Assembly (NCBI GenBank): GCA_945869735.1
Contig: CAMBPQ010000003.1
Coordinates: 4,076 to 68,075, forward strand
Length of the DNA: 64,000 nucleotides
Reading direction: 5' to 3'
Source of the DNA: Planctomicrobium piriforme
Lineage (GTDB): Bacteria > Planctomycetota > Planctomycetia > Pirellulales > UBA1268
The notes beneath the pieces are model-generated. The model was given only the letters and a program-made list of their open reading frames with translations, was not told where the DNA came from and did no database searches. The position numbers and the translations under genes are program-made. Within the stretch, counting starts at the first letter, position 1; every line of letters begins with the position of its first letter. Shown here in pieces: positions 4,357-41,001 of this stretch.

Positions 4357-5106
4357 TCAGGTCGAAGCGTCGCGGCCCGCGGCGGCCGCAGCAACCGTCG
4401 CTTCGGCCCGATCGAGGACGCAGCGATAGTAGGCCAGACGGGTCGCTGCGACGTCCAGAGCACCTCCGAAACTCCGCGCCAGGTCGAGGTAGACCAGGGG
4501 AACCGGGAGTTCGACGACGGCGAGGCCCGCGGCGGCGGCCTGCACCCACACCTCCAGCGGCATCGCATACCCGGTCTCGGTGACGTGGAGATGCTCGAGG
4601 GCGTGCCGCGAATACGCCTTGAACCCGCAGAAGGCGTCGGTCAGGTTGAGCCCGAGCCGGTTATTGATCTCGGCAGTGATCTCGGCATTGATTCTCCTCC
4701 GCGCCTCCGGAGGGGCGCTGTCCCCGGCAAATCGCCGCAGGTAGCGGCTCCCACTGACGATGTCTGCCGGCACGGCTCGATCGCTCGCGGCGACGATAAA
4801 GTCGGGAATCAGCCCCGGCTGGTGCTGGCCATCGCAGTCGATCGTCACAACTCCGTCCCAGGGGCCGGCGAGGGTCTCTCGGAAGGCCGTGGCCAGCGAG
4901 GCGCCGTAGCCGGCATTGAGGGCATGCCGTACCACGCGAACATCGCCGCGGCGGGCGACGCGGGCAGCGAGGAGCTCCGAGGTGCCGTCATTCGAGCCGT
5001 CATCGACCACGAGCACGTCGGGGGCGAACCGCAGCACCTCGTCGAGCACACCCTCGACATGGGCGGCCTCGTTGTAGACCGGCAAGGCAGTAAGAAACCG
5101 GGGCAT
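4357..5106 (-). CDS. Family 2 glycosyltransferase (dolichyl-phosphate mannose synthase-like)
   Basis: N-terminus LPVYNEAAHVEGVL...VVDDGSNDGT, and DxD-type TIDCDGQH. Confidence 0.85.
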   Translation of the reverse strand: MPRFLTALPVYNEAAHVEGVLDEVLRFAPDVLVVDDGSNDGTSELLAARVARRGDVRVVRHALNAGYGASLATAFRETLAGPWDGVVTIDCDGQHQPGLIPDFIVAASDRAVPADIVSGSRYLRRFAGDSAPPEARRRINAEITAEINNRLGLNLTDAFCGFKAYSRHALEHLHVTETGYAMPLEVWVQAAAAGLAVVELPVPLVYLDLARSFGGALDVAATRLAYYRCVLDRAEATVAAAAAGRDAST

Positions 5107-7574: not shown

Positions 7575-7710
7575 GCCGGCGTTTCTCTCCAGCCGTCAGC
7601 GGCGCCGCGCCTGCGCGAGCGGGTGCGCCGCCGCCATGCCGTCGGTTGCCGCCGCGCGCAGCGTGTGCGCGGTCGTCCGCTGCGTGCCCACGCCTTTCGG
7701 GAGCCACTTC

Positions 7711-8850
7711 ATGCCCATCCCTGCCGCGGGGCCGGCGGCCCGCAGCCGCCGCCTTCTGCCTCATCATGGTTTTACGCTCGTCGAACTGCTCGTCGTGATT
7801 GCGATCATCGCCGTGCTCATCGGCCTGCTCCTGCCGGCGGTGCAGAGTGCCCGCGAGTCGGCCCGCCGCATCGCCTGCGTGAGCAACCTCCGCCAGTTCG
7901 GCCTCGCGATGCTCATCCACGAGAGCGCCAAGCGGGCCTTTCCGCCGACCGATGCCCGTGGGAGCGGCAGCCTCAGTGGCACTGCGACGGGCGGCTGGTC
8001 GCTGCATGCCCGCCTGCTACCGTACGTCGAAGAGACGTCGCTGGCCGCGGGATTCGACTTCAAACGAGCCGCGTTCACCGGTTCCTTCAGCAATCAACAG
8101 CCCACGCCGGCGTTCGCCTCGCTGTTCGCGACGCCGATCCCGCTGCTCTTGTGTCCAAGCGACATGGCACCTGCGGTCAACCTCTGTAACGGCTTCCCTT
8201 ACGGCGGCAACAACTACATGGTCAGCATCGGCAGCGGCACGGCGAACGGGCAGGGAAGCTTCTACTGGAATTTCTCGCGGCCGACCGACGGCATCGTCTA
8301 CGAGAACTCCCGGGTGCGAATGGCACAGATCACCGATGGCGCTTCGAAGACGGTCCTCGCCAGCGAGGCGGTGCGGAGCGTCGGTGGCGACTCTGACTTC
8401 CCGGCGGGCTCCCGGCCGCCGGTTCCGTTTCAATACACGTTCAACGGCTCGAACGACTTCAACTCCGGTAACGTGTCCCTCAAAGCCAACGCGTCGGCGC
8501 CGACGACCGCCGAGATCGACGCCTTGGTCGCCGCGTGGGCCACACGCACCTCCTCGGCCTACACCTGGCGGGGTGCCAGCAGCACCGGGATGCGCGGCCG
8601 GGGCGTGTCCTGGGCCGCGACCACACAGGGAAACAGCCTGACCAACGGCTTCCTGACCCCCAATAGCCCGATCCCCGACTACGTCGTGCACTGGTCGGGG
8701 TTCTTCGGGCCGAAGAGCTGGCATCGCGGCGGCGCCAACGTGCTGTTCGCCGACGGCCACGTCGCCACTCTGGCCGAAGACACCGACCCCGGCCTTCACC
8801 GCGGCCTCCACAGCATCGCGGGAGGCGAGACGACATCGAGCGGTTTCTGA
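7711..8850 (+). CDS. DUF1559 domain protein with a prepilin-type N-terminal cleavage/methylation segment
   Basis: GFTLVELLVVIAIIAVLIGLLLPAVQSARESARRIACVSNLRQ, with C-terminal HRGGANVLFADGHV. This is the hallmark Planctomycetota family. The start is placed at the internal Met 7711; the ORF is open from 7636. Confidence 0.85.
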   Translation: MPIPAAGPAARSRRLLPHHGFTLVELLVVIAIIAVLIGLLLPAVQSARESARRIACVSNLRQFGLAMLIHESAKRAFPPTDARGSGSLSGTATGGWSLHARLLPYVEETSLAAGFDFKRAAFTGSFSNQQPTPAFASLFATPIPLLLCPSDMAPAVNLCNGFPYGGNNYMVSIGSGTANGQGSFYWNFSRPTDGIVYENSRVRMAQITDGASKTVLASEAVRSVGGDSDFPAGSRPPVPFQYTFNGSNDFNSGNVSLKANASAPTTAEIDALVAAWATRTSSAYTWRGASSTGMRGRGVSWAATTQGNSLTNGFLTPNSPIPDYVVHWSGFFGPKSWHRGGANVLFADGHVATLAEDTDPGLHRGLHSIAGGETTSSGF

Positions 8851-25330: not shown

Positions 25331-25474
25331 CGGGAAACCTGTGCGGGGGATGCGGCTGGATGGGACGAACTGGCCATCTCAGGTACATAATAGCCTCCAT
25401 CCAGTGGCATGTCCGGTAGCACACCCCTCAGGATGGTCTTCGCCGGGCCCCAAATCACGAAACCGTCAGCACCC

Positions 25475-26533
25475 ATGATCCTCGTCACCGGCGGGGCCGG
25501 CTTCATCGGCTCAAACTTCGTGATCGACTGGCTCGGCGCCTCTGACGAGCCCGTGGTGAATCTCGATAAGCTCACCTACGCGGGGAATGTCAGGAACCTC
25601 GACTGCCTCGCCGGCGACCCGCGGCACCGCTTCGTCCGGGGCGACATCGCCGACCAGCGCCTCGTCGAGAGCCTGCTCTCCGAGCACCGGATTCGGGCGA
25701 TCGTCCATTTTGCGGCCGAGAGCCATGTCGACCGCTCGATCCATGGTCCCGCCGACTTCGTCGACACCAACATCGTGGGCACGTTCAGGCTCCTCGAGGC
25801 GGCCCGGGCCTATTGGACAGCACTCGCTCCGGCCGACCGTGAAGCTTTTCGCTTCCTCCATGTCTCGACCGACGAGGTCTTCGGCACGCTCGGCGCCGAT
25901 GATCCCCCGTTTGCGGAGACAAACCAGTACCTGCCCAACAGCCCCTACGCCGCCAGCAAGGCCGCATCGGACCATCTCGTCCGCGGCCACCACCACACCT
26001 ATGGCCTACCGGTGCTCACGACCAACTGCTCCAACAACTACGGGCCCTGGCAGTTTCCCGAAAAGCTCATTCCGCTCATCATCGCCAACGCCCTCGCCGG
26101 CAAGCCGCTGCCGATCTACGGTGACGGCCGCCAGATCCGCGACTGGCTCTCTGTCGGCGACCACTGTGCGGCGATCCGCCGCGTGCTCGAGGCGGGCAGA
26201 CCTGGAGAGGTCTACTGCGTTGGCGGCTCGAGCGAGAAGGCCAACATCGATGTCGTGCAGACGCTCTGCGGCATCCTCGACACGGAGCGTCCGCGGACGG
26301 ATGGCTCGCCCTATGCGTCGCTGATCACGTTCGTGAAGGATCGGCCGGGCCACGACCGTCGCTACGCAATCGACGCCCGGAAGATCACGGCTGAGCTCGG
26401 CTGGACGCCGGCGGAGACGTTTGCGACAGGCATGCGGCACACGGTCCGCTGGTACCTCGACCATCAGGACTGGGTCGCCGATGTGACCAGCGGCGGCTAC
26501 CGGGAATGGGTCGCGAAACATTACGCCTCCTGA
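25475..26533 (+). CDS. rfbB: dTDP-glucose 4,6-dehydratase
   Basis: MILVTGGAGFIGSNF, YAASKAASDHLV, and C-terminal DRPGHDRRYAID. Confidence 0.95.
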   Translation: MILVTGGAGFIGSNFVIDWLGASDEPVVNLDKLTYAGNVRNLDCLAGDPRHRFVRGDIADQRLVESLLSEHRIRAIVHFAAESHVDRSIHGPADFVDTNIVGTFRLLEAARAYWTALAPADREAFRFLHVSTDEVFGTLGADDPPFAETNQYLPNSPYAASKAASDHLVRGHHHTYGLPVLTTNCSNNYGPWQFPEKLIPLIIANALAGKPLPIYGDGRQIRDWLSVGDHCAAIRRVLEAGRPGEVYCVGGSSEKANIDVVQTLCGILDTERPRTDGSPYASLITFVKDRPGHDRRYAIDARKITAELGWTPAETFATGMRHTVRWYLDHQDWVADVTSGGYREWVAKHYAS

Positions 26534-27456
26534 TGCCTCCTACCACGACGCGACTACCGAGGATCGTTCTGCTGGGCGCGAGTGGCCAAGTGGGCCGCGA
26601 ACTGCGTGGACCCCTCGCCGCCTGTGGCGAAGTACTGGCCTGCGACCGCCGCCTAGCCGACCTCGAACGGCCCGAGGGCGTGGTCGCTCTCCTCCAACGG
26701 GAGCGGCCGGACGTGATCGTCAACGCCGCCGCCTACACGGCCGTCGACCGCGCCGAGTCGGAGCCTGACCACGCCCGGCTCGTCAACGCCACGGCTGTTG
26801 GCTTGGTCGCGGCGGAGGCGGCGCGGTCGGGCGCGATGCTCGTCCACTACTCGACCGACTACGTCTTCGACGGCCTGAAGGTGGGCTCGTACGCCGAAAC
26901 CGATGAGCCGCATCCGCTTTCCGTCTACGGGGCCACGAAGCTTGCAGGAGAGCGGGCGATCGCAGCCGCCGGCTGTCGCCACTGGATTTTCCGCACGACC
27001 TGGGTCTACGCGGCCGAGGGCCACAACTTCGTCCGCACGATGCTCCGTCTGGCGCGGCAGCGCGACGAACTGCGGGTGGTCGACGACCAGTTCGGGGCGC
27101 CGACACCCGCGGGCCTGATCGCCGATGTGACAGCGGCCTTCGTCGGCCGGCTCGCGGAGCCCACCGCGGCGCCGAACGATGGCCTCTACCATCTCGCCCC
27201 ACACGGCGAGACCACGTGGTGTGGCTTTGCCCGGTTGGTGCTGGCGACAGCTCGTGCGCAGGGCCTCACCCTGCGGTGCGGTCCCGAACAGGTGCGGGCG
27301 ATCGCCACCGCCGACTACCCGCTGCCTGCGCAGCGGCCCGCCAATTCCCGCCTCTGCACGGCCAAGCTTGAGGCCGCTCTCGGCAAGATGCTCCCGGGCT
27401 GGCAGGATGGTTTGGCTCCCGTTGTTGCGGATCTCGCCGCGAAATCCACTTTCTGA
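26533..27456 (+). CDS. rfbD: dTDP-4-dehydrorhamnose reductase
   Basis: LLGASGQVGREL, VNAAAYTAVDRAE, YGATKLAGE, and ATWVYA-like blocks. The ATG overlaps the rfbB TGA. Confidence 0.9.
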   Translation: MPPTTTRLPRIVLLGASGQVGRELRGPLAACGEVLACDRRLADLERPEGVVALLQRERPDVIVNAAAYTAVDRAESEPDHARLVNATAVGLVAAEAARSGAMLVHYSTDYVFDGLKVGSYAETDEPHPLSVYGATKLAGERAIAAAGCRHWIFRTTWVYAAEGHNFVRTMLRLARQRDELRVVDDQFGAPTPAGLIADVTAAFVGRLAEPTAAPNDGLYHLAPHGETTWCGFARLVLATARAQGLTLRCGPEQVRAIATADYPLPAQRPANSRLCTAKLEAALGKMLPGWQDGLAPVVADLAAKSTF

Positions 27457-27474: not shown

Positions 27475-28362
27475 ATGCAGACACGCAAAGGCATCATTCT
27501 CGCCGGCGGCTCGGGCTCGCGGCTCCATCCGGTCACGCTCGCCGTCTCGAAGCAGCTGATGCCGGTCTACGACAAGCCGATGATCTACTACCCCCTGAGC
27601 GTACTCATGCTCGCGGGCGTCCGTGAGATCCTCGTGATCTCCACGCCACAGGACACGCCGCGGTTCCGCGACCTGCTCGGCGACGGCGCCGCCTGGGGCA
27701 TCGACATCCGCTATGCGGTGCAGCCGAGCCCCGACGGCCTGGCGCAGGCGTTCATCATCGGTGCCGACTTCGTGGGATCCGGGCCGTCGGTACTCGTGCT
27801 CGGAGACAACATCTTCTATGGCCATGGCCTCGGCCGGCGGCTCACGGCGGCGAGTGGCCAGGCGGCCGGGGCCACGGTGTTTGCCTATCCCGTCGCCGAT
27901 CCCGAGCGATATGGCGTCGTCGAGTTTGGTGCGGACGGGCGGGCCAAGTCGCTCGCGGAGAAGCCGCCGGATCCCCGCAGCCGCTACGCCGTCACGGGGC
28001 TCTACTTCTACGACGAGCAGGTGGTCGATATCGCGCGGCACATGAAGCCAAGCCCACGCGGCGAACTGGAGATCACCGACGTCAACCGGGTCTACCTCGA
28101 CCGCGGCCAACTCGACGTGCAGGTGATGGGCCGCGGCGACGCCTGGCTCGACACCGGCACGCACGACAGCCTGCTCGAGGCCGGGCAGTTCATCCAGTCG
28201 CTGGAGAAGCGGCAGGGGCTCAAGATCTGCTGCCCTGAGGAGATCGCCTGGCGAAACGGCTGGATCGACGGCGACCAACTCGAACGGCTCGCAGCCCCGC
28301 TGGCCAAGAGCGGCTACGGGCGTTATCTCCTCGAACTGAAGCGCGAGGCGGACCGGGCATGA
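27475..28362 (+). CDS. rfbA: Glucose-1-phosphate thymidylyltransferase
   Basis: [49 protein letters not shown]. Confidence 0.95.
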
Positions 28363-28907
28363 ACGTGACGACCGTGTCCATTCCCGGTGTGCTCGTGATC
28401 GAGCCGAGAGTCTACGAAGACGACCGTGGGCACTTCTTCGAAAGCTTCAACCACGCCGCCTTCGAGCGGGCGATCGGCAGCGACGTCCGCTTCGTGCAGG
28501 ACAACCAGAGTTTCAGCAAGGCGAACGTGCTCCGGGGCCTGCACTACCAGGTCGACCAGCCGCAGGGAAAGCTTGTCCGCGCGATCCAGGGCGCGATCTA
28601 CGACGTGGCGGTCGACATCCGCCCCGACTCGCCAACCTATGGAACGTGGGTCGGCGTCGAACTGTCGGCCGACAACTGCCGCCAGCTCTGGATTCCCGCG
28701 GGGCTGGCCCATGGGTTTCTCGTGCGATCCACCACGGCGGAGGTCCTCTACAAGACGACCGATTACTACGCCCCCGCAGCGGAGCGGTGCATCCTCTGGA
28801 ACGATCCCACGATCGCGATCGCCTGGCCGCTCAAGGGCGAGCCGGTCGTGTCGCTGAAGGACCGGCAGGGTACGACGTTCGCACCCGTGGCTCCACGGCC
28901 TGCCTGA
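28359..28907 (+). CDS. rfbC: dTDP-4-dehydrorhamnose 3,5-epimerase
   Basis: [23 protein letters not shown]...RGLHYQ...KLVR...[10 protein letters not shown], and GFAHGF-like LAHGF. Confidence 0.95.
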
Positions 28908-29096: not shown

Positions 29097-32087
29097 ATGA
29101 GCGATTTCTCCGCCTCTCCACCCGTGCTCGTGATCGGCGGCATGCATCGGTCCGGGACGTCGTACGCGGCGTCGCTGGTGCACTCGGCCGGCCTGTTCAT
29201 CGGCGACCGCCTGCTGGGGGCCGACGCCACGAATCCTCAGGGCCACTTCGAAGACCTCGACTTTCTCGAGTTTCACCAGTTTCTGCTGCGCGGGCACGGC
29301 CTGTCCGATGACGGCTTCATGGCTGACGGCGTCCTCGAGCCCGCGGCTGCTTCCCGAGAGCGGGCCCTGGGGCTCCTTGCCGCCCGGCGGGCGCTCGGCA
29401 GGCCGTGGGGCTGGAAGGATCCACGAACCGTCCTGCTGCTCGACTTCTGGAATGAACTGCTGCCCGACGCCCGATACCTGTTTGTATTTCGCCCAGCGTG
29501 GGACGTGATCGATTCGCTCTATCGCCGCGGCGATCCCGCATTTGTCGCCAACCCGACGTTCGCGGTCACAGTCTGGTTGCACTCCAACCGGCTGATCCGC
29601 GACTTCGCCCGCCGTCACCCCGACCGCGTGCTCGTCCGGGAGGTCTCGCAGCTGGCGGTGAATCCTGTCGAGACTCTCAACACCCTGCGGACGCGGTTCG
29701 GCATCCCGCTGGGACAGGCCGAGCCGACGTTCGCTCCCGACCTGCTGTCATCCGCATCGCCCTGTGACGCGGCGTTTCTCTCGACCGCGCTGCCCGCCTG
29801 TGGTGAGTTGCTCGCCGACCTCCGAGAGCTGGCCGGAATCACCCGGGACCGGTGCAGGACTCCACCTGTCGCCATCGACTCCGCGATTCTCGACCAGGGC
29901 CTAGCCGCCTGGCAGCGAGTCCGAGCTCTCGAGCGGGCCGCCCGGACTGCCGAGGTCGAACGAACTGCCGAGGTCGAACGGTTGGCCGAGGTCGTCCGCC
30001 ACCGCGATGCGATCATCCACAAACTTGAAGCCGATGAGACCGCGCAAACGGCCGCCGCGGCCACCACCGAGGAACTGCTGCGGCGCGAGCTCGCCGCGAC
30101 ACGGCAGGACACGCAGAACAGCAGCCTGCGGATCGCGGCCCTGGAGCAGCTCATCGGAGACATCCGGGGCAGCACGTCCTGGCGGCTGACGGCGCCGCTG
30201 CGGGCGCTCTTCGGGAAAGTCCGCGAAAAAGTCCGGGACCGGCGGCTCGCCGGGCACAGCCGGTTTATCCTCCGCCGCCTCGCCTCGCCGGCCGTCGCAA
30301 TGCGATCGCTGTCCCGAGCCGCCACAGTTCTCCGCACGCACGGCGTCGCCGGTCTGGTGCGGGCCGTCAGAACGGCTCGCACACTCGAGGGCTCTCACGA
30401 GCCATCACCCCGGCCGGCCGCGGCGCAGCGGGTCGTGCGGATGCCACTGGAAGTGCCGCGGTCGTTGAGGCCGTCCGTCGCCGAGGGCGACGCGCCGCTC
30501 GTGTCGGTGCTCGTGCCCGTCTTCGACACGCCAGCCGAGGTGCTGGAGGCGACGATCCAGTCGGTGCTAGCGCAGTCCGTCCCCCACTGGGAACTGATCC
30601 TCGTCAACGACGCCTCGTCGGCCCGCCATGTGCCCGAGATCCTCGCCCGTCACGCGGCCCGTGACGCACGCATCCGGCTGCACCACCGCGGCTCCAACGG
30701 CGGGATCAGCGCGGCGACGAACGACGCACTCGCGCAGGCTACTGGTGAGTTCGTAGCCTTTCTCGACCACGACGACCTGCTCGACCCCGACGCAGTCGCC
30801 CGGTGTACCGCTGCCCTGCTCGCCACCGGCGCCGATGCCGTCTATACCGATCAAGACACGATCGACGGCCGGGACCGCCATGTGTGGACGTTCCACAAGC
30901 CGGACTGGTCGCCCGAGTATCTCCGCCATGTGATGTATGTGGGGCACCTGCTCATCGTCCGGCGGTCGCTCGTGAACCGTCTCGGCGGCTTCTCGAGCGA
31001 GTTCGACGGTGTGCAGGATTTCGAGTTTATGCTCCGGCTCGGCGAGGAAACCTCGCGAATCGCCCACGTGCCGGAGGTGCTCTATCACTGGCGGGCGATC
31101 AACGGCAGCCTCGCCTCGGCGAGTGATTCCAAGCGGGGAATCGACGGCCTCCAGGCCCGCGCCGTTCAGGCCCACCTCGACCGGCTCGGTATTCCAGCCA
31201 GTGCGGCGGCTCACCCACGATTTCGCCACCGCTGCGTCGTATCCCCGAAGCTCACGCGGTTTCCCCGCGTGTCGATTGTGATTCCCACGAAGGACCAGCC
31301 CGAACACATCGGCGCGTGCCTCGACTCGATCTTCGCGAAGACCCGCTATCCCGACTTCGAAGTCGTGGTCGTCGACACCGGCACCGAAGACGTGACGGCG
31401 GCGGCGATCCTCCGCTCCCATCCCGTCCGCGTGGTCGAGTTCACGAAGCCCTTCAACTATGCGGCTGCCAACAACGACGGTGCGGCAGCGGCCACGGGCG
31501 ACGTGCTCATATTTCTCAACAATGACACGGCGGTGCTTTCGCCCGACTGGCTCGACCACCTTGTCTTCCACCTCTCGGCGGCCGACGTGGGAGCGGTCGG
31601 GCCACTCTTGCTCTATCGCGACGGCAGCGTACAGCACGCCGGCGTGGTCCTTGGCGCCCGGGGCACAGCCGATCACGTGATGCGGAGATTTCCAGCCGAT
31701 GCCGATGGCTATGCCGGCAGCCTCTCGTGTCCGCGTGAGGTGTCGGCCGTCACTGGCGCCTGCCTGGCGATCCACCGCAGCACGCTCGCCCGGGTCGGCG
31801 GGTGGAACGACATGTACGCCACCCATTATCAGGATGTCGATCTCTGCCTGAGGCTACGTCACGAGGGCTTGCGGGTCATCTTCACTCCCGACACAAGGCT
31901 CACGCACCACGAGAGCCCCTCCCGGGGCGAACGCTACGATGTTCTCGATCGGCTGCTGCTCATCGACACGTGGCGGGATGAACTGGCCGGAGGGGACCCC
32001 GCCTACCCGGCCGCCTGTTCGCTCGACCGTCTCGATTACTCGCCACGCGACGATCCCGCGGAGCCGGCAGATGCCTGTCGCGCCTGA
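29097..32087 (+). CDS. Multidomain glycan-assembly protein: N-terminal sulfotransferase, coiled coil, two family-2 glycosyltransferase domains
   Basis: Sulfotransferase 5'-PSB GGMHRSGTS and 3'-PB-like WKDPRTVLLL. A heptad-rich segment RALERAARTAEVERTAEVERLAEVV...LRIAALEQLIGDI is followed by STSWRLTAPLR. GT2-1: VSVLVPVFDT...LILVNDASS...FLDHDD. GT2-2: VSIVIPTKDQ...VVVVDTGTED...FLNNDT. Confidence 0.85.
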   Translation: MSDFSASPPVLVIGGMHRSGTSYAASLVHSAGLFIGDRLLGADATNPQGHFEDLDFLEFHQFLLRGHGLSDDGFMADGVLEPAAASRERALGLLAARRALGRPWGWKDPRTVLLLDFWNELLPDARYLFVFRPAWDVIDSLYRRGDPAFVANPTFAVTVWLHSNRLIRDFARRHPDRVLVREVSQLAVNPVETLNTLRTRFGIPLGQAEPTFAPDLLSSASPCDAAFLSTALPACGELLADLRELAGITRDRCRTPPVAIDSAILDQGLAAWQRVRALERAARTAEVERTAEVERLAEVVRHRDAIIHKLEADETAQTAAAATTEELLRRELAATRQDTQNSSLRIAALEQLIGDIRGSTSWRLTAPLRALFGKVREKVRDRRLAGHSRFILRRLASPAVAMRSLSRAATVLRTHGVAGLVRAVRTARTLEGSHEPSPRPAAAQRVVRMPLEVPRSLRPSVAEGDAPLVSVLVPVFDTPAEVLEATIQSVLAQSVPHWELILVNDASSARHVPEILARHAARDARIRLHHRGSNGGISAATNDALAQATGEFVAFLDHDDLLDPDAVARCTAALLATGADAVYTDQDTIDGRDRHVWTFHKPDWSPEYLRHVMYVGHLLIVRRSLVNRLGGFSSEFDGVQDFEFMLRLGEETSRIAHVPEVLYHWRAINGSLASASDSKRGIDGLQARAVQAHLDRLGIPASAAAHPRFRHRCVVSPKLTRFPRVSIVIPTKDQPEHIGACLDSIFAKTRYPDFEVVVVDTGTEDVTAAAILRSHPVRVVEFTKPFNYAAANNDGAAAATGDVLIFLNNDTAVLSPDWLDHLVFHLSAADVGAVGPLLLYRDGSVQHAGVVLGARGTADHVMRRFPADADGYAGSLSCPREVSAVTGACLAIHRSTLARVGGWNDMYATHYQDVDLCLRLRHEGLRVIFTPDTRLTHHESPSRGERYDVLDRLLLIDTWRDELAGGDPAYPAACSLDRLDYSPRDDPAEPADACRA

Positions 32088-33246
32088 CATCTGGCTAGCC
32101 TGCCACGGTCCGCTCGAGTGCAATAGTGGCCAGCATGTGCGGTCGCTCGCCGGGGCGCTCGCCGACCGCGGCTTCGCCGTTACGGTGTGCGTGCCGGAAC
32201 GGTCCCCGGCCGACGCCGGCCTCCCAGGGTCCATCCGGCTCCGCTCATTCGCCGATGCACTCCGCGTCGCCGTCGACGCACCGCCCCGCATCCTGCACAT
32301 CTGGACGGCCCGCGAGCGGATGCGAATCTTTCACCGTGACCTGTCGCGACGGCTGGAGACGCCGGTGCCCCATGTGATCCACCTTGAAGACAACGAGTCA
32401 CTCCTGCTCACCGATCAGATGCGGCTCACCCCCGACGAGTTCCAGGATGTCCGCGACGGCCTCCGGCCGCTTGTCGTACCCAACCACCTCACCCACCCGC
32501 TGCATGGACGGCAGCTCATCGCCACGGCGGCGGGCGTTACTGCCCTGGTCGAGCCACTCATGAGGGGACTCCCCACCGGACTACCGACGGCGGTCTTCCA
32601 CCCGGGATACGACCCGATCTTCGCCCCAGCCCGGCCCGAAGCCGCGGCCGTCGTGCGGCGTCGCCTGCGCATCCCGGCCGACACCGCGATCGTGACCTAC
32701 ACCGGCAACGTGCATCCATCAAACGTCGACGAGGTGCGGAGCCTCTCTATCGCCGTGGCGCTCGCCAACCGCATGGGACGACCCACGACACTCGTGCGCA
32801 CCGGCAGTGACCACGTGCCGCTCACGGACCTCGGTGCCGACCTGCTCCGCCAGCACACCGTCGAACTCGGCACCGTGCCCCGGGGCGAGTTGCCGGATCT
32901 CGTCCACGCCGCCGACATCCTCGTCCAGCCCGGCCGCGTCGATGAGTGGAACATGTTGCGGTTTCCCTCGAAGCTACCCGACTACCTCGTGTCGGGCCGG
33001 CCGCTGATGCTGCCGCGGGTGAATCTCGGCATGGAACTCGACCACGGCCGTAACGCCATCGTGCTTCCCGAGGCGACGGCCGAACGCATCGCCGTCGCCC
33101 TCGTCGAATGGCTGCCCCAGCGCGACACGCTGGCCGCGATCGGCACCGCCGGAGCCGAGTTCGCCCGGCGGTCGCTCACCTGGTCTGCCGCGGCCGACGT
33201 GGTCGAGGGTCTGTACCGCAGGATCCTGCCGCCCGTGAGTGGATGA
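32071..33246 (+). CDS. GT4 (GT-B fold) glycosyltransferase
   Basis: C-terminal domain pattern VTYTGNV...LG.VP..ELPDL...ADILVQP.....W...FPSKLPDYL.SGRPL. The start at Met 32071 overlaps the upstream gene by 17 nt. Confidence 0.7.
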   Translation: MPVAPDIWLACHGPLECNSGQHVRSLAGALADRGFAVTVCVPERSPADAGLPGSIRLRSFADALRVAVDAPPRILHIWTARERMRIFHRDLSRRLETPVPHVIHLEDNESLLLTDQMRLTPDEFQDVRDGLRPLVVPNHLTHPLHGRQLIATAAGVTALVEPLMRGLPTGLPTAVFHPGYDPIFAPARPEAAAVVRRRLRIPADTAIVTYTGNVHPSNVDEVRSLSIAVALANRMGRPTTLVRTGSDHVPLTDLGADLLRQHTVELGTVPRGELPDLVHAADILVQPGRVDEWNMLRFPSKLPDYLVSGRPLMLPRVNLGMELDHGRNAIVLPEATAERIAVALVEWLPQRDTLAAIGTAGAEFARRSLTWSAAADVVEGLYRRILPPVSG

Positions 33247-33259
33247 GTCGGGCAAACGC

Positions 33260-34309
33260 TCAGCCGTGGTTGGCCGCGATGATCCGCGAGAGTTCCCGGA
33301 AGGTGGGCGATGCGGATTCGGCGGCACGGGCTGCCGTCACCACGGCCCGGATTCGGGCAGCGAAGACCGGGTCGTCGGCGAGTCGGCTCCAGACGGCCTC
33401 CGCCGTGTCGATCGTCGTGGTCGGACGCGCGACATCGCGGCCCAGACAGATGCCAAACTCAGCTTCCAGCCGGTCGACGGTCGGCCGGAAGACGCGGTCG
33501 AGCGCGGCGCACGTGTCTGCATCGAGGAGTTCGGTGAGGGTCGGCCGGGGTTCTTGCCGGCTGTCGGCATCGGCCTGCAGCCGCAGGTCAAACTCGCCGT
33601 CGACCGCGTCGAGCAGTTTCGTGGGGAGATGGTTGACCAGCCGCTTGAGCTCGACGGCCCCAGGCGTGTAACTCCGATTCACCTGCCCGGCCGGGGCCTC
33701 CGCGGGGAGACCGATTAGCTCCCGGAGCATGGCCGTGGCATCGACGGGCACGCCGGCCACCACGTAAGGCAGCACGGTGAGCCGCTCGTCACCGCAGCAT
33801 GCGCGCCATTCGAAGAGCGGCTCACCCGAGAGCGACCGCGGCGGCTCGCGGGCTGCGAGGATCATCGCAGCCAGCCTGCGGAGGGGCCGCTTGGTACGGT
33901 GCCGCTTCACCCCCTGGTTATGATGCGACACGACGGCGTCGAGCGGATGGCGCGCCAGGCAGATGACGTGGAAACGGGATGTCGGCAGCGTCGCAACGAT
34001 CGCCTGCGGATGCAAAAACGCGCTCTCTGCCGAAAGTAGCAGCCGACATTCCGCCCGACGTGCCGCGGCGAGGTTTTGGGCGATGGCCTGCCGGCCGGCG
34101 ATCGGCCCAGCGGCCAGCGCTTGCGCCAGCAGGTCGCCATGGCCGCCCGACACGCCGTTGGCGTCGAGATGGTGGTGCGGGTAGTGGATGCCGTGCCGCC
34201 GCAGCACGTCGGCCTGCGCGTGGAAGTGACGCTGCACCGCCGAGGTACCCGTCTTGGGAGCGCCAACATGCAGAATCAGTTCCGTATCCGGCGAGATCAG
34301 CGTCGTCAT
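33260..34309 (-). CDS. Sulfotransferase-family protein
   Basis: P-loop-like PAPS 5'-phosphosulfate motif HVGAPKTGTSAV, and ARHPLDAVVSHHNQ (3'-PB-like). ATGA overlap with the wzt stop. Confidence 0.6.
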   Translation of the reverse strand: MTTLISPDTELILHVGAPKTGTSAVQRHFHAQADVLRRHGIHYPHHHLDANGVSGGHGDLLAQALAAGPIAGRQAIAQNLAAARRAECRLLLSAESAFLHPQAIVATLPTSRFHVICLARHPLDAVVSHHNQGVKRHRTKRPLRRLAAMILAAREPPRSLSGEPLFEWRACCGDERLTVLPYVVAGVPVDATAMLRELIGLPAEAPAGQVNRSYTPGAVELKRLVNHLPTKLLDAVDGEFDLRLQADADSRQEPRPTLTELLDADTCAALDRVFRPTVDRLEAEFGICLGRDVARPTTTIDTAEAVWSRLADDPVFAARIRAVVTAARAAESASPTFRELSRIIAANHG

Positions 34310-35049
34310 ACCCCGGTTCCGTCGGCCGCGGGTAGCCGGGAGATGCTCTTCCTCGCGACGATCGCACCGTGTTCAAGTTCCACGACGCTGTCGCACTCAC
34401 GGGCGATCAGCTCGGGAGAGTGCGAGGCGAGCACGAGAATCCCCGTCGATTGGATCATGTCCCGCAGTCGCACCGCGCCCCGCTCGCGAAACTCGGCGTC
34501 GCCGACCGACAGCCACTCGTCCATGAGCACGATGTCGGCGCGGAAACTCGTCACGATCGAGAAGGCCAGCCGCATGAGCATGCCCGTCGAGTAGGTCCGC
34601 ACCGGCATCGACAGATAGTCCCCCAAGCCGCTGAACTCGGCGATCTCGGGCGTCCGCCCGCGGATCTCCCCCCGCGAGAGTCCTTGGACGAGCCCCCGGA
34701 TAATGATGTTCTCATACCCGGTCGCATCCCGCTCGATGCCGAGCATCGGATTGACGAGGCTGGAAATTGTCCCTTGGCGAACGATCCGGCCACGTGTGGG
34801 CTCGTAGACGCCGGCCAGCGTCTGCAGGAGCGTCGACTTGCCGGCGCCGTTGTGGCCCACGATGCCGAGCCGGTCACCGGCCGACAGCGTGAGTGAGATA
34901 TCCCGCAGGGCCTCCACGACGGTGACGCCCGTCTCGCGGCCGATCCGGCCACCGGTCGCCGCAGCCGCCAGCGTGGTCTTCAGCGAGGCGGCATGCGTCC
35001 CGAAGATCGGGAACTCGACCGTCACCGCATCGAGCACGAGTGACGCCAT
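34306..35049 (-). CDS. wzt: Polysaccharide ABC exporter ATP-binding protein (Wzt/KpsT type, no C-terminal carbohydrate-binding extension)
   Basis: GIVGHNGAGKSTLL, YSTGMLMRLAFS, VLMDEWLSVGD. 247 aa. The start is at Met 35049, 6 nt after the wzm stop. Confidence 0.85.
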   Translation of the reverse strand: MASLVLDAVTVEFPIFGTHAASLKTTLAAAATGGRIGRETGVTVVEALRDISLTLSAGDRLGIVGHNGAGKSTLLQTLAGVYEPTRGRIVRQGTISSLVNPMLGIERDATGYENIIIRGLVQGLSRGEIRGRTPEIAEFSGLGDYLSMPVRTYSTGMLMRLAFSIVTSFRADIVLMDEWLSVGDAEFRERGAVRLRDMIQSTGILVLASHSPELIARECDSVVELEHGAIVARKSISRLPAADGTGV

Positions 35050-35054
35050 GGCGG

Positions 35055-35861
35055 CTAGATCCAGTAAACGACGCGGTGACGAAAGGCCGTGTAGAGCATC
35101 CCGGCGAGCGTCACGGTGAGGGTCGTCCAGCCGAGGAGGAACCACCACGTGCCGGGGGCCGGTAGGCTGCCAAGGAGCGGCAGCCGCATCACGTCGAGCA
35201 TCTGCGCGAGTGGGTTCAAAAGGAGGAACGTCGCGCGCTCGGGCAGCCGATCGGGCATCCAGAACACGGGCGTGAGAAACATCAGGAACTGCATGGCGCT
35301 GGTCACGATCTGCGCCACGTCGCGGAACCGTGCCGAGAGAATGCCGAGGATAATCGCCAGCGCGTGCAGGTTGACGAGCACGATCACAAACCCCGGCACG
35401 AACAGCAGTTGACGCGGGGTGATGCCGATCCCGGCCCACACCGCCACGGGCAGGTAGAGCACCAGGTGGTGGGCCAATAGGATCACCTGCTTCGCGAGGC
35501 TTCGCCAGACAAACACGCTCAGCGAAAACTTCGCTTGCTTCAGATACGGCGCCGCGGCGATGAAGACCTGGCAGCCCTCGTTGATGCTCGCGACGAAGAA
35601 GTGCCAGAAGATGATCCCGAGCGTGAGGTGGGGATAAAATCGCCGCAGGCCCACGTCGAACAAGCCCGAGTAGAGCGGCCCCATACCGAGCAGCATGATC
35701 CCCATGCTGAGCGTGATCCAGAGCGGCCCGAGCATCGACCGGCGATACCGTAGGATCGTGTCGTACCAGGCGAGCGTGGCCCAGAGACCGACCCGGCGGG
35801 TGCCGGACCACCAGTCGGCGAAGGCCCCGCGGGGATCGAAGGAAACGGCTCGTCCTGTCAT
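35055..35861 (-). CDS. wzm: Polysaccharide ABC exporter permease (ABC-2 type, Wzm/KpsM)
   Basis: RYRRSMLGPLWITL....., six hydrophobic helices, and the C-terminal NPL..... motif LLNPLAQMLDV. Confidence 0.85.
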   Translation of the reverse strand: MTGRAVSFDPRGAFADWWSGTRRVGLWATLAWYDTILRYRRSMLGPLWITLSMGIMLLGMGPLYSGLFDVGLRRFYPHLTLGIIFWHFFVASINEGCQVFIAAAPYLKQAKFSLSVFVWRSLAKQVILLAHHLVLYLPVAVWAGIGITPRQLLFVPGFVIVLVNLHALAIILGILSARFRDVAQIVTSAMQFLMFLTPVFWMPDRLPERATFLLLNPLAQMLDVMRLPLLGSLPAPGTWWFLLGWTTLTVTLAGMLYTAFRHRVVYWI

Positions 35862-37029: not shown

Positions 37030-38010
37030 ATGGATCACATGCACGACGACATGCCGCCGGTGACCGTGGTGGTCGTCAACCACAACGCCGGGCCGCTCCT
37101 GGCCGACTGCCTGCGGGCTGCGCTGGCCCAGACGCGACAGGTGGTGCTCGTCGACAACGCCTCCGAGCCACGACCCGTGGACGATGTGCTCGGCTGCTTT
37201 CCGGCCCACTCCGACTTCGACGTGGTGCGGTGCCCCGTGAACGCCGGCTTCGCCGCGGGCTGTAACCGTGGGCTGGCATTGGCCCGCGAGCCGATCCTTT
37301 TGTTTCTCAACCCCGACTGTATCCTGGCTGCCGGGGCAGTCGCGGCGCTCGTGCGTGCGCTCGGAGGCGAGGCCCACATCGGGATGGTCGGCGGACTGCT
37401 CACCGACGAGCAGGGCTTCGAACAGGGTGGCTCGCGGCGGGCCGTCCCCACGCCGTGGCGGTCGTTCGTCCGGGGCTTCGGGCTCACGCGCTTTTCGAGC
37501 CGCTGGCCGAGACTCTTCTCCGATTTCAATCTCCACGGCCAGCCGCTGCCCACGGCCCCGATCGACGTCGAAGCCGTATCGGGGGCATGCACGATGGTGA
37601 CGCGGCAGGCCCTCGACGACGTCGGCCTCTGGGACGAGGGCTTCTTTCTGCACTGCGAGGATCTCGACCTCTGCATGCGGTTTCGCAAGCGCGGCTGGCG
37701 GATCCAGTTCGTGCCGGCGGCCCGGGCGGTGCATCATCGCGGCATGTGCGGCCGATCCCGACCAATCTTCGTCGAGTGGCACAAGCACAAGGGCATGATC
37801 CGCTTCTACCAAAAGCACTTTCGCCACCAGTACCCGCTCGGGCTGATGGGCCTGGTGATCGCCGGTGTGTGGCTCAGGTTTGTGGCGTTCGCCTCCCGCC
37901 TCGCCATGCGGCGGCTGCGGGTCGCAGCGGGGCAGTTCGTTGGTGCAATACCGCGGCCACGTGCCGCCGCGAGGCCGCGGGCCGCCTCCGCCCCAGCGTC
38001 GTCGTCATAA
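37030..38010 (+). CDS. Family 2 glycosyltransferase (rhamnosyltransferase-like)
   Basis: VTVVVVNHNAG...VLVDNAS...NAGFAAGCNRG...FLNPDC...FFLHCEDLDLCMR. Confidence 0.85.
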   Translation: MDHMHDDMPPVTVVVVNHNAGPLLADCLRAALAQTRQVVLVDNASEPRPVDDVLGCFPAHSDFDVVRCPVNAGFAAGCNRGLALAREPILLFLNPDCILAAGAVAALVRALGGEAHIGMVGGLLTDEQGFEQGGSRRAVPTPWRSFVRGFGLTRFSSRWPRLFSDFNLHGQPLPTAPIDVEAVSGACTMVTRQALDDVGLWDEGFFLHCEDLDLCMRFRKRGWRIQFVPAARAVHHRGMCGRSRPIFVEWHKHKGMIRFYQKHFRHQYPLGLMGLVIAGVWLRFVAFASRLAMRRLRVAAGQFVGAIPRPRAAARPRAASAPASSS

Positions 38011-38048: not shown

Positions 38049-38906
38049 ATGAATCATCATCGCACCGTCGGTGTACTGGGCGCGACGAGCCTGGTCGGTG
38101 AGCCGCTGCTCCCGCTGCTCACCGCGGCAGGGTGGCGGACGATCGCCTGCACGCGGGCCACATGCCTGCCCTGCGGGCCTGCCGACGGCGGCGTGAGCTG
38201 GTGCCATCCAGGCGATGCGCGGCCGGGCGGCGAGACGGTCGTCGCCACGTGGATTGCGCTCTGCCCGCTCTGGGCGCTGCCCAACCAGCTCGCGTGGCTC
38301 GAATCACTCTCGATCCGCAGGCTCGTCGCCCTCTCGTCGACGAGCCTGATCACGAAGCGGGAATCACCCGACCCGGAGGAACGCCGCGTCGCCAGAGTGC
38401 TGGCCGCCACCGAACAGACGCTGCGGGCGTGGAGCGTTGCCCGGGACGTTGAGGTCTGCCTGCTGCAGCCCACGATGATCTACGACGGCGTTCGCGACGG
38501 TAACGTGGCCGCCATCGCTGCGTTCGTCCGCCGCCACGGCTGGTTCCCGGTGGCCGGCCCCGCCCGGGGGCGACGGCAACCGGTGCACGCCGCCTGCGTC
38601 GCGGCCGCGTGCGTCGCCGCGATTGGCCGCGACTCGCTCGCCCCCGCCTACACCCTCTCCGGCGGCGCGGCGCTGCCGTTTCGAGATCTCGTGGCGGCGG
38701 TGTTCGCCGCCTGCGGGCTGCCGCCGCGGATCATCCACGTGCCCCGCCCTGTGTGGACCATGCTGCTACCGCTCGCCCGGGCTTTCGGCATCGCCGAGGG
38801 GGTATCGAGGGGCATGGCCGCGCGCATGAACGACGACCTCGCTTTCGACCATGCCGACGCGGCCCACGACCTCGGCTTCCGGCCCCGGCCGTTCACCCTC
38901 GCTTGA
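38049..38906 (+). CDS. NAD(P)-dependent epimerase/dehydratase (SDR) family protein
   Basis: N-terminal Rossmann GVLGATSLVGEPL. Size and context fit the family. Confidence 0.65.
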   Translation: MNHHRTVGVLGATSLVGEPLLPLLTAAGWRTIACTRATCLPCGPADGGVSWCHPGDARPGGETVVATWIALCPLWALPNQLAWLESLSIRRLVALSSTSLITKRESPDPEERRVARVLAATEQTLRAWSVARDVEVCLLQPTMIYDGVRDGNVAAIAAFVRRHGWFPVAGPARGRRQPVHAACVAAACVAAIGRDSLAPAYTLSGGAALPFRDLVAAVFAACGLPPRIIHVPRPVWTMLLPLARAFGIAEGVSRGMAARMNDDLAFDHADAAHDLGFRPRPFTLA

Positions 38907-39087: not shown

Positions 39088-41001
39088 ATGACATCGCCAT
39101 CCCCGTTCGCAACGGCCGCGACACGCTGGATCGCGATCATCCCCGTGGCCCTCCTGGCTGTCGTGCTCGTCGGCCTCAACGTGGTCATTGACCCGTCCTC
39201 CTACGACGTATCGCAGCTGCCGCGACTCCTCGTGCTCTCTGCATTTCTGCTCGTCCTCACCCCGCTCGTGCTGCTCGTACCGGCGGTCGCCTCCCGGCTC
39301 GACACGTCGGTGCTTCGTGAGCCGGTCGTCGTGGCCTCGGCCGTCTCACTCCTCATATCGGTAGCGTCGCTCACCTTCGCGACCAACATGTCGGCGGGCT
39401 GGACCGACATCTTCCGGACGCTCGCCGCGGTCAGCGTGCTCGGCGGCGGCTGCCTCCTCCTGCCGCTCGATCGGGGCTGGAGGCAACGCGTCGTGGAGGC
39501 GCTCGTGCTCGCCGCCGTCGTGGCCGTCGCCCTTGGAGCCTCCGAAACGCTGACACGCTGCGGCCCTGGTTTCCCTAGCCGCCGGGCGATGGAGGTCGTG
39601 ACCGGACGGATGGCGAACGTCAATCTCTATGCCGGCCTCCTCGCGATGCTGCTGCCGTGGTGCCTGGGCGGGACGGCACTGCTCGCCGGTGGCTGGCGCT
39701 GGCTTTCGGCAGCGACGGCGGTCGGCACACTCGCGCTCATCGTGCTGGTCCAGTCCCGGGCAGCGTGGCTGGCGGTGCTTGTCTCCGCAGCCGTAACAGG
39801 GGCCGCCGCGGTTGCCTGCCACGACCGCCTGGCACTCTCGCGCAGCCTGCGGCGTTCGCTCGCGGCAGCTTTTCTCGGTGGTGCCGCGACGGTCCTCGGG
39901 ATAGCGTCGCTGACCGGCACCGACACACCGCTCGGTCACCTCCTCGAGACAACGCTCGTGACGCGGCCCCATCAAGCCGGCGGTCCGACCGACGGCGGCC
40001 GCACGATGATCTGGGGCGTCACGGCTCGGATGATCGCCGACCATCCGCTCACGGGCGTCGGCGCCGGCAACTTCACCATCCGGCTCCACGATTATTACGA
40101 CGGCAACCTCGACTTCTCGAACCTCTCAAGTGACAACTGGATTCAGCCGCATAACGACTTCCTGTGGGTATTCGCCGAGAAGGGACTGCCCGGGCTCGTG
40201 GCCTTTACGGCGATCTTCGTCGCGGCCCTCCTCGCCGTCCGCGACGTGCTCCGTTGTGGCTCAGTACGCGAGGCCAGGCTCGCCCTCGTCTGCCTGATGG
40301 CACTCGTGGCGTACCTCGTCTTCTCCTGCGTCGATTTTCCACTCGATCGTGTCACTCATCAGGTGCATCTCGCAGTCCTCTTGGCTGTGATCACCCTCGA
40401 GAAACATGCCGTGCGGCCCGTTTCGACGCGGCCCGTGCCGCTCCCCGGCTGGCTCGTCGTGCCGCCGACGGTCGCGGCCCTCGCGCTCGGCGTGACCTAT
40501 GCGACTGCGGCGCTCGACCAGGAACGGCAGGTCATGATCGCGCGGCGGGCAGGCCACGCCGGCGACTGGAAGACGATGCGGACCGCGGCCCGCGCGGCGG
40601 CGACCCCTTGGAAGTCCCTCGATCCGCTGGCCACGCCCATCGCCTTCCTCGAAGGCATGGCGGACATGCGACTCGGCCACCGTGACCAGGCGACCGCCTG
40701 CCTGGAACGAGCCTTCACGGCCAACCCCAACCGCATGTACGTCGTCAACAACCTCGCCGCCCTGTACGCAGAGGCCGGCCGGTTCGACGATGCGATCCCC
40801 CTGTTCGCTGCTGCCGCCGACCGCTATCCCGACCGGCTCGAACCGCGACACAACCTCGCTGGCTGCCTCGTCGACGCGGGCCGGTTCGCTGAGGCCGTGG
40901 CGGTGATCGAAACGGTACCCGAGGAGTATCGGACCGATCCGCTCAAGGAGATGCTGGCGTTTGCCCGTGAAAAGCTCGCGGTGTCGCCGGACGGTCGTTA
41001 G
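39088..41001 (+). CDS. O-antigen ligase/polymerase-like (Wzy_C) membrane protein with C-terminal TPR repeats
   Basis: Multiple TM helices, and the Wzy_C signature NWIQPHNDFLWVFAEKGLPGLV. C-terminal TPR-like NLAALYAEAGRFDDAIPLF...NLAGCLVDAGRFAEAV. Confidence 0.8.
   Translation: MTSPSPFATAATRWIAIIPVALLAVVLVGLNVVIDPSSYDVSQLPRLLVLSAFLLVLTPLVLLVPAVASRLDTSVLREPVVVASAVSLLISVASLTFATNMSAGWTDIFRTLAAVSVLGGGCLLLPLDRGWRQRVVEALVLAAVVAVALGASETLTRCGPGFPSRRAMEVVTGRMANVNLYAGLLAMLLPWCLGGTALLAGGWRWLSAATAVGTLALIVLVQSRAAWLAVLVSAAVTGAAAVACHDRLALSRSLRRSLAAAFLGGAATVLGIASLTGTDTPLGHLLETTLVTRPHQAGGPTDGGRTMIWGVTARMIADHPLTGVGAGNFTIRLHDYYDGNLDFSNLSSDNWIQPHNDFLWVFAEKGLPGLVAFTAIFVAALLAVRDVLRCGSVREARLALVCLMALVAYLVFSCVDFPLDRVTHQVHLAVLLAVITLEKHAVRPVSTRPVPLPGWLVVPPTVAALALGVTYATAALDQERQVMIARRAGHAGDWKTMRTAARAAATPWKSLDPLATPIAFLEGMADMRLGHRDQATACLERAFTANPNRMYVVNNLAALYAEAGRFDDAIPLFAAAADRYPDRLEPRHNLAGCLVDAGRFAEAVAVIETVPEEYRTDPLKEMLAFAREKLAVSPDGR

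Follow-up and report, generated by a model that had tools for sequence, protein, structure and literature searches.

The biosynthesis locus for a surface glycan in Planctomicrobium piriforme raises the question whether a bacterial polysaccharide chain can be ended by sulfation. The window analysed here, a stretch of 64,000 nucleotides (nt) from contig CAMBPQ010000003.1, contains at 29097-32087 (plus strand) an open reading frame (ORF) of 996 amino acids (aa), which joins a sulfotransferase-like head, a helical spacer, a basic linker and two glycosyltransferase modules of family GT2 in a single polypeptide. Few aspects of how bacteria assemble their surface glycans are understood as well as chain-length control by capping. 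To our knowledge, only few caps have been proven experimentally, namely methyl, phosphate plus methyl, and Kdo, and we know of no experimental demonstration of a sulfate cap or of a sulfotransferase that acts as terminator.

We regard it as evenly poised whether this single polypeptide is a polymerase-terminator for a rhamnose-containing glycan of the ABC-transporter-dependent type, with a distal sulfotransferase head that uses 3'-phosphoadenosine 5'-phosphosulfate (PAPS). The basis of this reading is the architecture of the protein, its fold and motifs, the conserved locus, the homology of the chassis and genomic associations at the level of the family. By analogy with characterised systems, we infer the donor sugar, the regiochemistry at the chain terminus, the oligomerisation of the spacer, its function as a ruler and the acceptor.

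The N-terminal head

The ORF translates without interruption, and 36 full-length homologues begin at a position that matches its ATG start. All four parts that a preliminary description of the locus had recognised, a PAPS-sulfotransferase-like domain, an intervening segment and two GT2 domains, were found.

The sulfotransferase-fold head occupies aa 9-250 (29121-29846, plus strand) and was identified by Pfam, structure prediction, Foldseek and motifs. The Pfam profile Sulfotransfer_3 (PF13469), a family that includes NodH (PMC11625862), aligned to aa 9-205 over profile positions 1-214 of 216 (E=3e-5). An AlphaFold2 model of aa 1-262 reached a predicted local distance difference test (pLDDT) score of 92. 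When this model was compared with the Protein Data Bank (PDB) by Foldseek, the top 28 matches were, without exception, PAPS sulfotransferases, with E values of 7.5e-7 to 1.5e-3, a template modelling (TM) score of about 0.5 and an identity of 11-18%. They include the entries 4gox, 3ap3, 4gbm, 2zq5 and 3uan, and cover the sulfotransferase (ST) domains of olefin synthase (OLS) and CurM, TPST1/2, Stf1, the 3-OSTs and NDST1. Adenylate and guanylate kinases were found lower in the list.

In an alignment of 37 sequences, the stretch GGMHRSGTS (aa 14-22), the residues K107, P109 and R110 of the motif WKDPR, and R132...S140 are invariant. The motif residues stay constant down to about 30% identity, also in an alignment of the head alone. 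The loop G15-M-H-R-S-G-T-S22 (nt 29136-29162, plus strand) has no Walker-A lysine, and we take it to be the RSGT(T/S) 5'-phosphosulfate-binding (5'-PSB) loop of TPST-, CurM- and Stf-type enzymes. R132...S140 (nt 29490-29516, plus strand) fits the R-x7-S motif for 3'-phosphate binding (3'-PB). H17 and E52, the latter within GHFED, are invariant as well and are candidate catalytic residues, with E52 as candidate base. Because the fold and the invariant PAPS-binding motifs agree, we read the head as very probably an active PAPS sulfotransferase, a prediction from sequence and model which upholds the domain assignment made earlier from GGMHRSGTS and WKDPR. The fold, the RSGT(S/T) loop and the R-x7-S motif are shared with TPST, CurM-ST, OLS-ST, Stf1 and 3-OST, but none of those enzymes is joined to a coiled coil or to glycosyltransferases.

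A conserved chassis with exchangeable heads

The C-terminal half of the protein consists of two GT2 modules with GT-A fold. Module 1 spans aa 466-700 (30492-31196, plus strand) and carries D557-H-D-D560 as its DxD motif; module 2 spans aa 722-965 (31260-31991, plus strand) and carries N808-N809-D810. The profile PF00535, which matches module 1 from aa 470, scored above threshold with 166.7 bits over two stretches, and PF13641 matched module 2 at aa 723-941. The AlphaFold2 model places the strand-helix cores of the two modules at about 469-700 and 725-965. D557, D559 and D560 are invariant in the homologues, which agrees with the DHDD motif named in the preliminary description; of two candidates for the NND motif, the invariant one is N808-N809-D810 (within FLNNDT) and not the one at 792-794. 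With the full-length model, Foldseek returned GT-A polymerases only and nothing on the head, and the tandem GT-A pair matched the bifunctional polymerases PmHS2, K4CP and LARGE1.

Moreover, we found that the part of the protein behind the head is shared with proteins of different N-terminal function. Residues 314-944 aligned with residues 751-1392 of the homologue P0107 at 36% identity over 651 columns (E=5e-101), and this alignment spans the end of the spacer, the motifs GSTSW.TAPLR and VLRTHG.AG, and both GT2 modules. The motif VLRTHG(V/I)AG is common to the linker of the window protein and P0107. At its N-terminus, P0107 has an S-adenosylmethionine (SAM)-methyltransferase followed by about 500 residues, and P0092 and P0110 are similar. 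These sequence comparisons support a head that can be swapped, as sulfotransferase or methyltransferase, on a conserved chassis of spacer end, linker and dual GT2 modules.

Head and polymerase modules are separated by a helical spacer of 96 residues (aa 262-357; 29880-30167, plus strand), a candidate coiled-coil ruler by its predicted helices, its composition and the lengths found in homologues. As described earlier, it is rich in Ala, Glu and Arg, which make up 47% of the spacer vs 29% of the whole protein; it contains 2 Pro/Gly. The AlphaFold2 model has helices at 262-313 and 321-357 (pLDDT 52-81). In many homologues the equivalent segment shows a strong heptad periodicity, with z up to 14. 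The segment from W272 to S359, both invariant, varies between 44 and 153 residues among the homologues and is conserved on both flanks; hence, its variation is that expected of a ruler. The spacer ends in GSTSWRLTAPLR (aa 358-369), which contains the STSWRLTAPLR noted before (aa 359-369) and the invariant residues S359 and W362. With this motif begins a basic helical linker (aa 358-432; 30168-30392, plus strand), in which 17 K/R stand against 3 D/E. The linker is a plausible candidate for a membrane-proximal or assembly region.

Distribution and association with transporters

The architecture is widespread and not unique to the window. It occurs in dozens of 90%-identity clusters of proteins of about 930-1070 aa, and longer relatives carry extra GT4, GT2 or methyltransferase modules. 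Among species-representative genomes, the full-length layout was found in Planctomycetota, Cyanobacteria (e.g. Halothece PCC 7418, Nostoc and Waterburya), Verrucomicrobiota, Gammaproteobacteria (e.g. Salinivibrio sp. ES.052 and Rudaea) and Acidimicrobiales. In Gloeocapsopsis, Laspinema and a Pseudomonas metagenome-assembled genome (MAG), head and dual-GT2 part are apparently encoded on separate ORFs. The preliminary description had considered that the architecture might be common and already characterised with another function. It is indeed common across these five groups, but the literature searched contained neither a characterised sulfotransferase terminator nor a paper in which a sulfotransferase is connected with chain termination or a coiled-coil ruler; the key census of 2019 lies outside that scope. 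This census by Mann, Kimber and Whitfield (Glycobiology 29:822) is said to report 'new chemistries', and a prior in-silico prediction is possible. By analogy, a sulfate cap would plausibly be a new variant chemistry of a known assembly strategy.

A search with the head alone against 50%-identity representatives gave 13,925 relatives at E<=1e-3, of which 592 reached E<=1e-30, and the database names of relatives range from 'glycosyltransferase', 'sulfotransferase family protein' and 'O-antigen biosynthesis protein' to 'hypothetical'. Many relatives are stand-alone proteins of 350-530 aa, in which a sulfotransferase is followed by a long coiled coil (P0123-P0158, L098:9989-11257, L117:9971-11404), and some of them, such as P0124 and the protein of L098, end in S-x-x-W. 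Their genes often lie directly downstream of a wzt gene whose product bears the C-terminal module Wzt_C; in L117, start and stop overlap.

A coiled-coil terminator together with a Wzt bearing a carbohydrate-binding module (CBM) is the signature of capped-glycan systems (PMC11231755). We found a Wzt_C-bearing Wzt next to relatives of the head in Halothece PCC 7418, Salinivibrio, Gloeocapsopsis, Chroococcopsis, Laspinema and the Pseudomonas MAG. The metagenomic locus L008, with the gene set rmlBDAC-wzm-wzt and a head relative, encodes a Wzt with Wzt_C as well. In 25 of the 78 genome loci seeded with the head, a Wzt_C-type Wzt lies within 10 kb, frequently as the immediately upstream gene. Wzt_C was searched for with a local hidden Markov model (HMM) built from Pfam-confirmed segments; this model is strict enough to have overlooked the module in L008. 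The presence of a C-terminal extension on Wzt was dropped as a criterion, since it gave false positives with MsbA-type and sugar-ABC ATPases in L125, L143 and L103.

Two further observations concern relatives of the head. In a Microcoleaceae MAG (L130:7614-8285), a Wzt_C-like domain forms an ORF of its own of 224 aa, not fused to the Wzt ATPase, and adjoins a sulfotransferase-headed multi-glycosyltransferase protein of 1613 aa. In a Kofleriaceae MAG (L005:10022-10212, contig CAXNMK010000007.1), 191 nt are 100% identical to 29259-29449 of the window, inside the sulfotransferase head, and are bordered on both sides by GCGCATA. The host contig, a myxobacterial long-read contig of 378 kb, is otherwise unrelated, and the stretch could be a chimeric assembly, a contamination or a captured DNA fragment.

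Relation to characterised systems

The closest characterised formats are ORF6 of Klebsiella pneumoniae O7 (PMC11231755) and WsaE of Geobacillus stearothermophilus NRS 2004/3a (PMC2943079), rather than WbbB, which had been proposed as the model for the domain order. In ORF6, a methyltransferase-kinase head terminates a rhamnose-rich chain that is made by two GT2 modules (PMC11231755). The window protein resembles it in having an N-terminal terminator position, a central coil or spacer and two C-terminal GT2 modules in one polypeptide, and in a gene neighbourhood that includes rml genes, wzm/wzt and separate genes for adaptor or additional glycosyltransferases. In contrast to the sulfotransferase fold found here, the head of ORF6 consists of a methyltransferase and an atypical kinase, together with a CBM-like fold, and adds methyl-phosphate.

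In the trifunctional protein WsaE, a capping domain is joined to two rhamnosyltransferase domains, which make two types of linkage (PMC2943079), and the combination of an N-terminal modifying domain with two glycosyltransferase domains is shared with the window protein. The S-layer glycan cluster of Geobacillus comprises WsaE, wzm, wzt, rml genes, the tetratricopeptide repeat (TPR) protein WsaA and the Wzy_C-family oligosaccharyltransferase WsaB (PMC2943079); wzm, wzt, rmlABCD and TPR and Wzy_C-type parts are likewise present in the window. However, WsaE comes from a Gram-positive host, its cap is a 2-O-methyl group and its glycan is attached to a protein.

WbbB of K. pneumoniae O12 and Raoultella terrigena also unites terminator, coiled-coil ruler and polymerase in one protein (PMC11231755). 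Its terminator, however, is a beta-Kdo glycosyltransferase, and WbbB and the window protein showed no relationship in sequence. The terminator domain of WbbB belongs to CAZy family GT99, and its polymerase modules are not known to form a GT2 pair.

In WbdD of Escherichia coli O9a and K. pneumoniae O3 and O5, the terminator is placed distally on a coiled-coil ruler, with a C-terminus that binds the membrane and recruits the polymerase (PMC3482155, PMC11231755). The heads of WbdD are kinase and methyltransferase and its polymerase WbdA is a separate protein, whereas the window protein has the fused format. Pfam and NCBIfam scans of the 996-aa protein yielded neither kinase nor methyltransferase families, and it is therefore not a member of the WbdD family. 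The stand-alone sulfotransferase-plus-coil relatives of the head copy the WbdD format in what appears to be an uncharacterised form.

Evidence against a sulfate cap and possible alternative roles of the head

Several results weigh against a polymerase-terminator with a sulfate cap. As to the head, its Sulfotransfer_3 score of 24.8 bits is below the gathering score of 27, and of the two Pfam families suggested beforehand as a check only PF00535 passed its threshold. Moreover, a sequence search of PDB chains with aa 1-460 gave nothing meaningful, and hence the head is identified by its fold. Together with TM scores of only about 0.5 to solved sulfotransferases and the kinases further down the Foldseek list, the Pfam score would fit a head that is inactive as a sulfotransferase, i.e. 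a degenerate P-loop domain with a nucleotide-binding, kinase-like or structural capping role. We consider this very improbable. The loop lacks the lysine of Walker A and is presumably RSGT(T/S)-like, the R-x7-S motif and the candidate catalytic Glu are invariant over a wide divergence, and the homologous heads P0050, P0044 and P0047 exceed the Pfam cutoff with 45.4, 31.3 and 32.3 bits. Kinases, moreover, appear only behind the 28 leading structural matches to sulfotransferases.

As to the spacer, the monomer model breaks it at 314-320, at moderate confidence only. Its 3.5-residue hydrophobic periodicity was insignificant in a Fourier test, for the whole spacer as well as for each helix (z about 1.2), so that this sequence by itself does not show the heptad-rich character described earlier, in contrast to the described composition. 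We infer a coiled coil in the window spacer from homology and from the predicted helices, not from its own sequence. Further, the likeness to ORF6 is one of layout, and the 36% identity of the chassis is to methyltransferase-headed homologues, not to ORF6 or WsaE themselves. Genes for PAPS synthesis were not found in Pfam scans of the window; such genes usually sit elsewhere in the genome, and we regard this point as neutral.

A further departure from the known systems, in which the CBM of the transporter recognises the terminal cap in the Klebsiella cases studied (PMC11231755), concerns the transporter. The ATPase Wzt of the window (34306-35049, minus strand; 247 aa) has the ABC_tran domain only. 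Wzt_C was detected neither by Pfam nor by the local HMM, and it is absent as well from the Wzt of the loci L001-L004, four syntenic MAGs from Planctomycetia; in L001, L002 and L004 the protein is likewise short. A defining partner of cap-dependent systems is thus missing in the window clade, and export gated by the cap through a CBM of Wzt cannot work here as it does in the prototypes. The analogy to coiled-coil terminators with coupled polymerases, which the preliminary description had drawn, is borne out by the variable spacer, the swappable head and the link to Wzt_C in other lineages, but not by the Wzt of the window itself. Either the cap does not gate export, or the gating involves another partner, for which a second sulfotransferase-like protein, Stf2, is the obvious candidate.

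The gene stf2 (33260-34309, minus strand; 349 aa) is translationally coupled to wzt, as its ATG overlaps the wzt stop (ATGA). Stf2 contains the motifs GAPKTGTS and RHPLDAVVS and matches the Pfam families Sulfotransfer_1 (E=0.004) and Sulfotransfer_3 (E=0.007). It belongs to a small family of 23 clusters, and P17, K18, T19, G20, S22, R119, P121 and S127 are invariant in 19 homologues. Judged by these residues, Stf2 is likely an active second sulfotransferase; consequently, sulfate in the product could stem from either enzyme. A gene duplication as the origin of the two sulfotransferase-like proteins was rejected, since BLASTP detected no relationship between Stf2 and the head. Among the window, L001, L003 and L004, Stf2 is 47-50% identical vs mostly 65-90% for the neighbouring proteins, and it evolves much faster than its neighbours in the locus.

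Stf2 occupies the place where other Wzt proteins have their carbohydrate-binding module. In L003 (14292-15962), wzt and stf2 read as one ORF of 603 aa with a one-base difference at the junction. Either the fusion is genuine or the assembly is wrong at this point; among the database relatives of Stf2, none was found to be fused in this way. A possible parallel is known from the O-antigen cluster of Aeromonas salmonicida, where a conserved gene for a 216-aa sulfotransferase-domain protein lies between wzt and a WbbB homologue (PMC4483657). The authors left this gene unexplained, as the O antigen has no reported sulfate (PMC4483657).

The missing cap-binding module would be expected if the head decorates internal residues and yields a regularly sulfated polymer of the rhamnan type, whose length follows from the balance of polymerisation and export. 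The helix would then only oligomerise or act as a scaffold, to which the weak heptad signal of the window spacer would fit. Likewise, two sulfotransferase-like genes in the locus suggest more than one sulfation event, and a minority of the other head-containing loci (e.g. L007, L034/L095, L105 and L111) also have a short Wzt beside the head relative. We nevertheless consider internal decoration unlikely. The head is placed at the far end of a spacer of variable length, a position held only by terminators in all characterised cases (PMC11231755), and the same chassis bears methyltransferase heads in homologues. Outside the window clade, head relatives show a strong link to Wzt_C transporters. 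Moreover, the stand-alone Stf2 is available for the decoration of internal residues.

Genes of the locus and destination of the glycan

Genes in the window, which has a G+C content of about 67%, were called by third-position GC and Pfam scans. Housekeeping genes, among them those for lysyl-tRNA synthetase, ALAD, PTPS and a TatD-like protein, extend to 25.1 kb. They are followed on the plus strand by the four genes for dTDP-L-rhamnose synthesis, rmlB (25409-26533; Pfam GDP_Man_Dehyd/Epimerase), rmlD (26506-27456; RmlD_sub_bind), rmlA (27475-28362; NTP_transferase) and rmlC (28359-28907; dTDP_sugar_isom), with E values of 1e-63 to 1e-101. As stated in the preliminary description, these genes lie immediately upstream of the 996-aa ORF, with a gap of 189 nt behind rmlC, and their order is kept in L002-L004.

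On the other side, the ORF is overlapped at its 3' end by the ATG (at 32071) of a gene for a GT4-type glycosyltransferase (32071-33246, plus strand; 391 aa). It has weak matches to the Pfam families Glyco_trans_1_4 and Glyco_transf_4, is syntenic in L001-L004 and is a candidate adaptor enzyme. The gene of the ABC-2 permease Wzm (35055-35861, minus strand; 268 aa; PF01061) lies beside wzt. Both transporter genes are less than 3 kb away from the 996-aa ORF and thus close to it, as had been claimed, but they lie on the opposite strand and converge with it, and the GT4 gene and stf2 are situated between the ORF and wzt. Further genes on the plus strand encode a GT2 of a single module (37030-38010) and a 285-aa protein with a weakly Rossmann- or epimerase-like N-terminus (38049-38906), both syntenic in L001-L004. 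They are followed by a 637-aa protein (39088-41001) in which Wzy_C, the family of O-antigen ligases and O-oligosaccharyltransferases, is fused to C-terminal TPR repeats (PF04932, E=3e-19, plus TPR families). This gene is syntenic in the relatives too. The entire block, together with the same housekeeping neighbours, is kept gene for gene in the four Planctomycetia MAGs L001-L004; the closest syntenic relative is a Pirellulales MAG with proteins 91-98% identical. Genes for an initiating transferase were not found in Pfam scans of the window.

The fusion of Wzy_C to TPR bears on the destination of the glycan. It mirrors WsaA plus WsaB of the Geobacillus S-layer glycan cluster (PMC2943079), and because of this parallel lipopolysaccharide (LPS) and protein are both possible as destinations. 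The product might then not be an LPS O antigen, but a chain attached to a protein, such as an S-layer or other surface glycoprotein, or a released exopolysaccharide, with either role of the head. The Pfam scans of the window, which found no genes for lipid A-core, point in the same direction. However, Wzy_C is also the family of the O-antigen ligase WaaL, and the sequence data do not separate the two. Altogether, we regard a destination other than LPS as somewhat unlikely.

Apart from the glycan locus, the window encodes a DUF1559 protein whose N-terminus carries a methylation motif of the prepilin type (7636-8850, plus strand) and an isolated GT2 (4357-5106, minus strand), the latter far from the main cluster.

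Proposed mechanism and implications

If the 996-aa protein is a polymerase-terminator, synthesis might proceed as follows. An initiating enzyme whose gene lies elsewhere would form a primer on undecaprenyl phosphate, and the GT4 enzyme and the single GT2 would add adaptor sugars. The two GT2 modules of the large protein would then alternate and polymerise the repeat with dTDP-rhamnose supplied by RmlBDAC. An oligomerised helical spacer, whose 96 residues would measure at most about 14 nm if continuous, could hold the head off the membrane-proximal glycosyltransferase modules, so that only a chain of sufficient length would come within reach of the head and be sulfated on its non-reducing terminal sugar. 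Terminal sulfation would block further extension and set the modal length. Finally, Wzm-Wzt would export the chain and the Wzy_C-TPR protein would transfer it to its acceptor.

Beyond the window, we tentatively suggest that sulfation is a further terminating chemistry, carried out in Planctomycetota, Cyanobacteria and further phyla by a large family of heads on coiled-coil spacers, which are either stand-alone, as in WbdD, or fused to a polymerase, as in ORF6 and WbbB. Wzt_C would read the cap in many lineages, and the window clade may have lost this module of Wzt, with Stf2, in one genome fused to Wzt, taking over its role or performing a second sulfation coupled to export. A Wzt without CBM and an Stf2 coupled to wzt make the window clade an interesting deviation from the prototype.

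The modular chassis, in which the head is exchanged and spacer and polymerase are kept, is attractive for the glycoengineering of polysaccharides of defined length and functionalised end. Should the head modify internal residues instead, the protein would remain of use as a compact template from which to make regularly sulfated rhamnans. A sulfate cap, if true, would represent a new chemistry, by which the glycan carries a strong negative charge on its outermost tip, and it would predict a new specificity class of the carbohydrate-binding modules of Wzt. In that case, the sulfated surface glycans of cyanobacteria and planctomycetes would be tied to a defined enzyme family with thousands of relatives.

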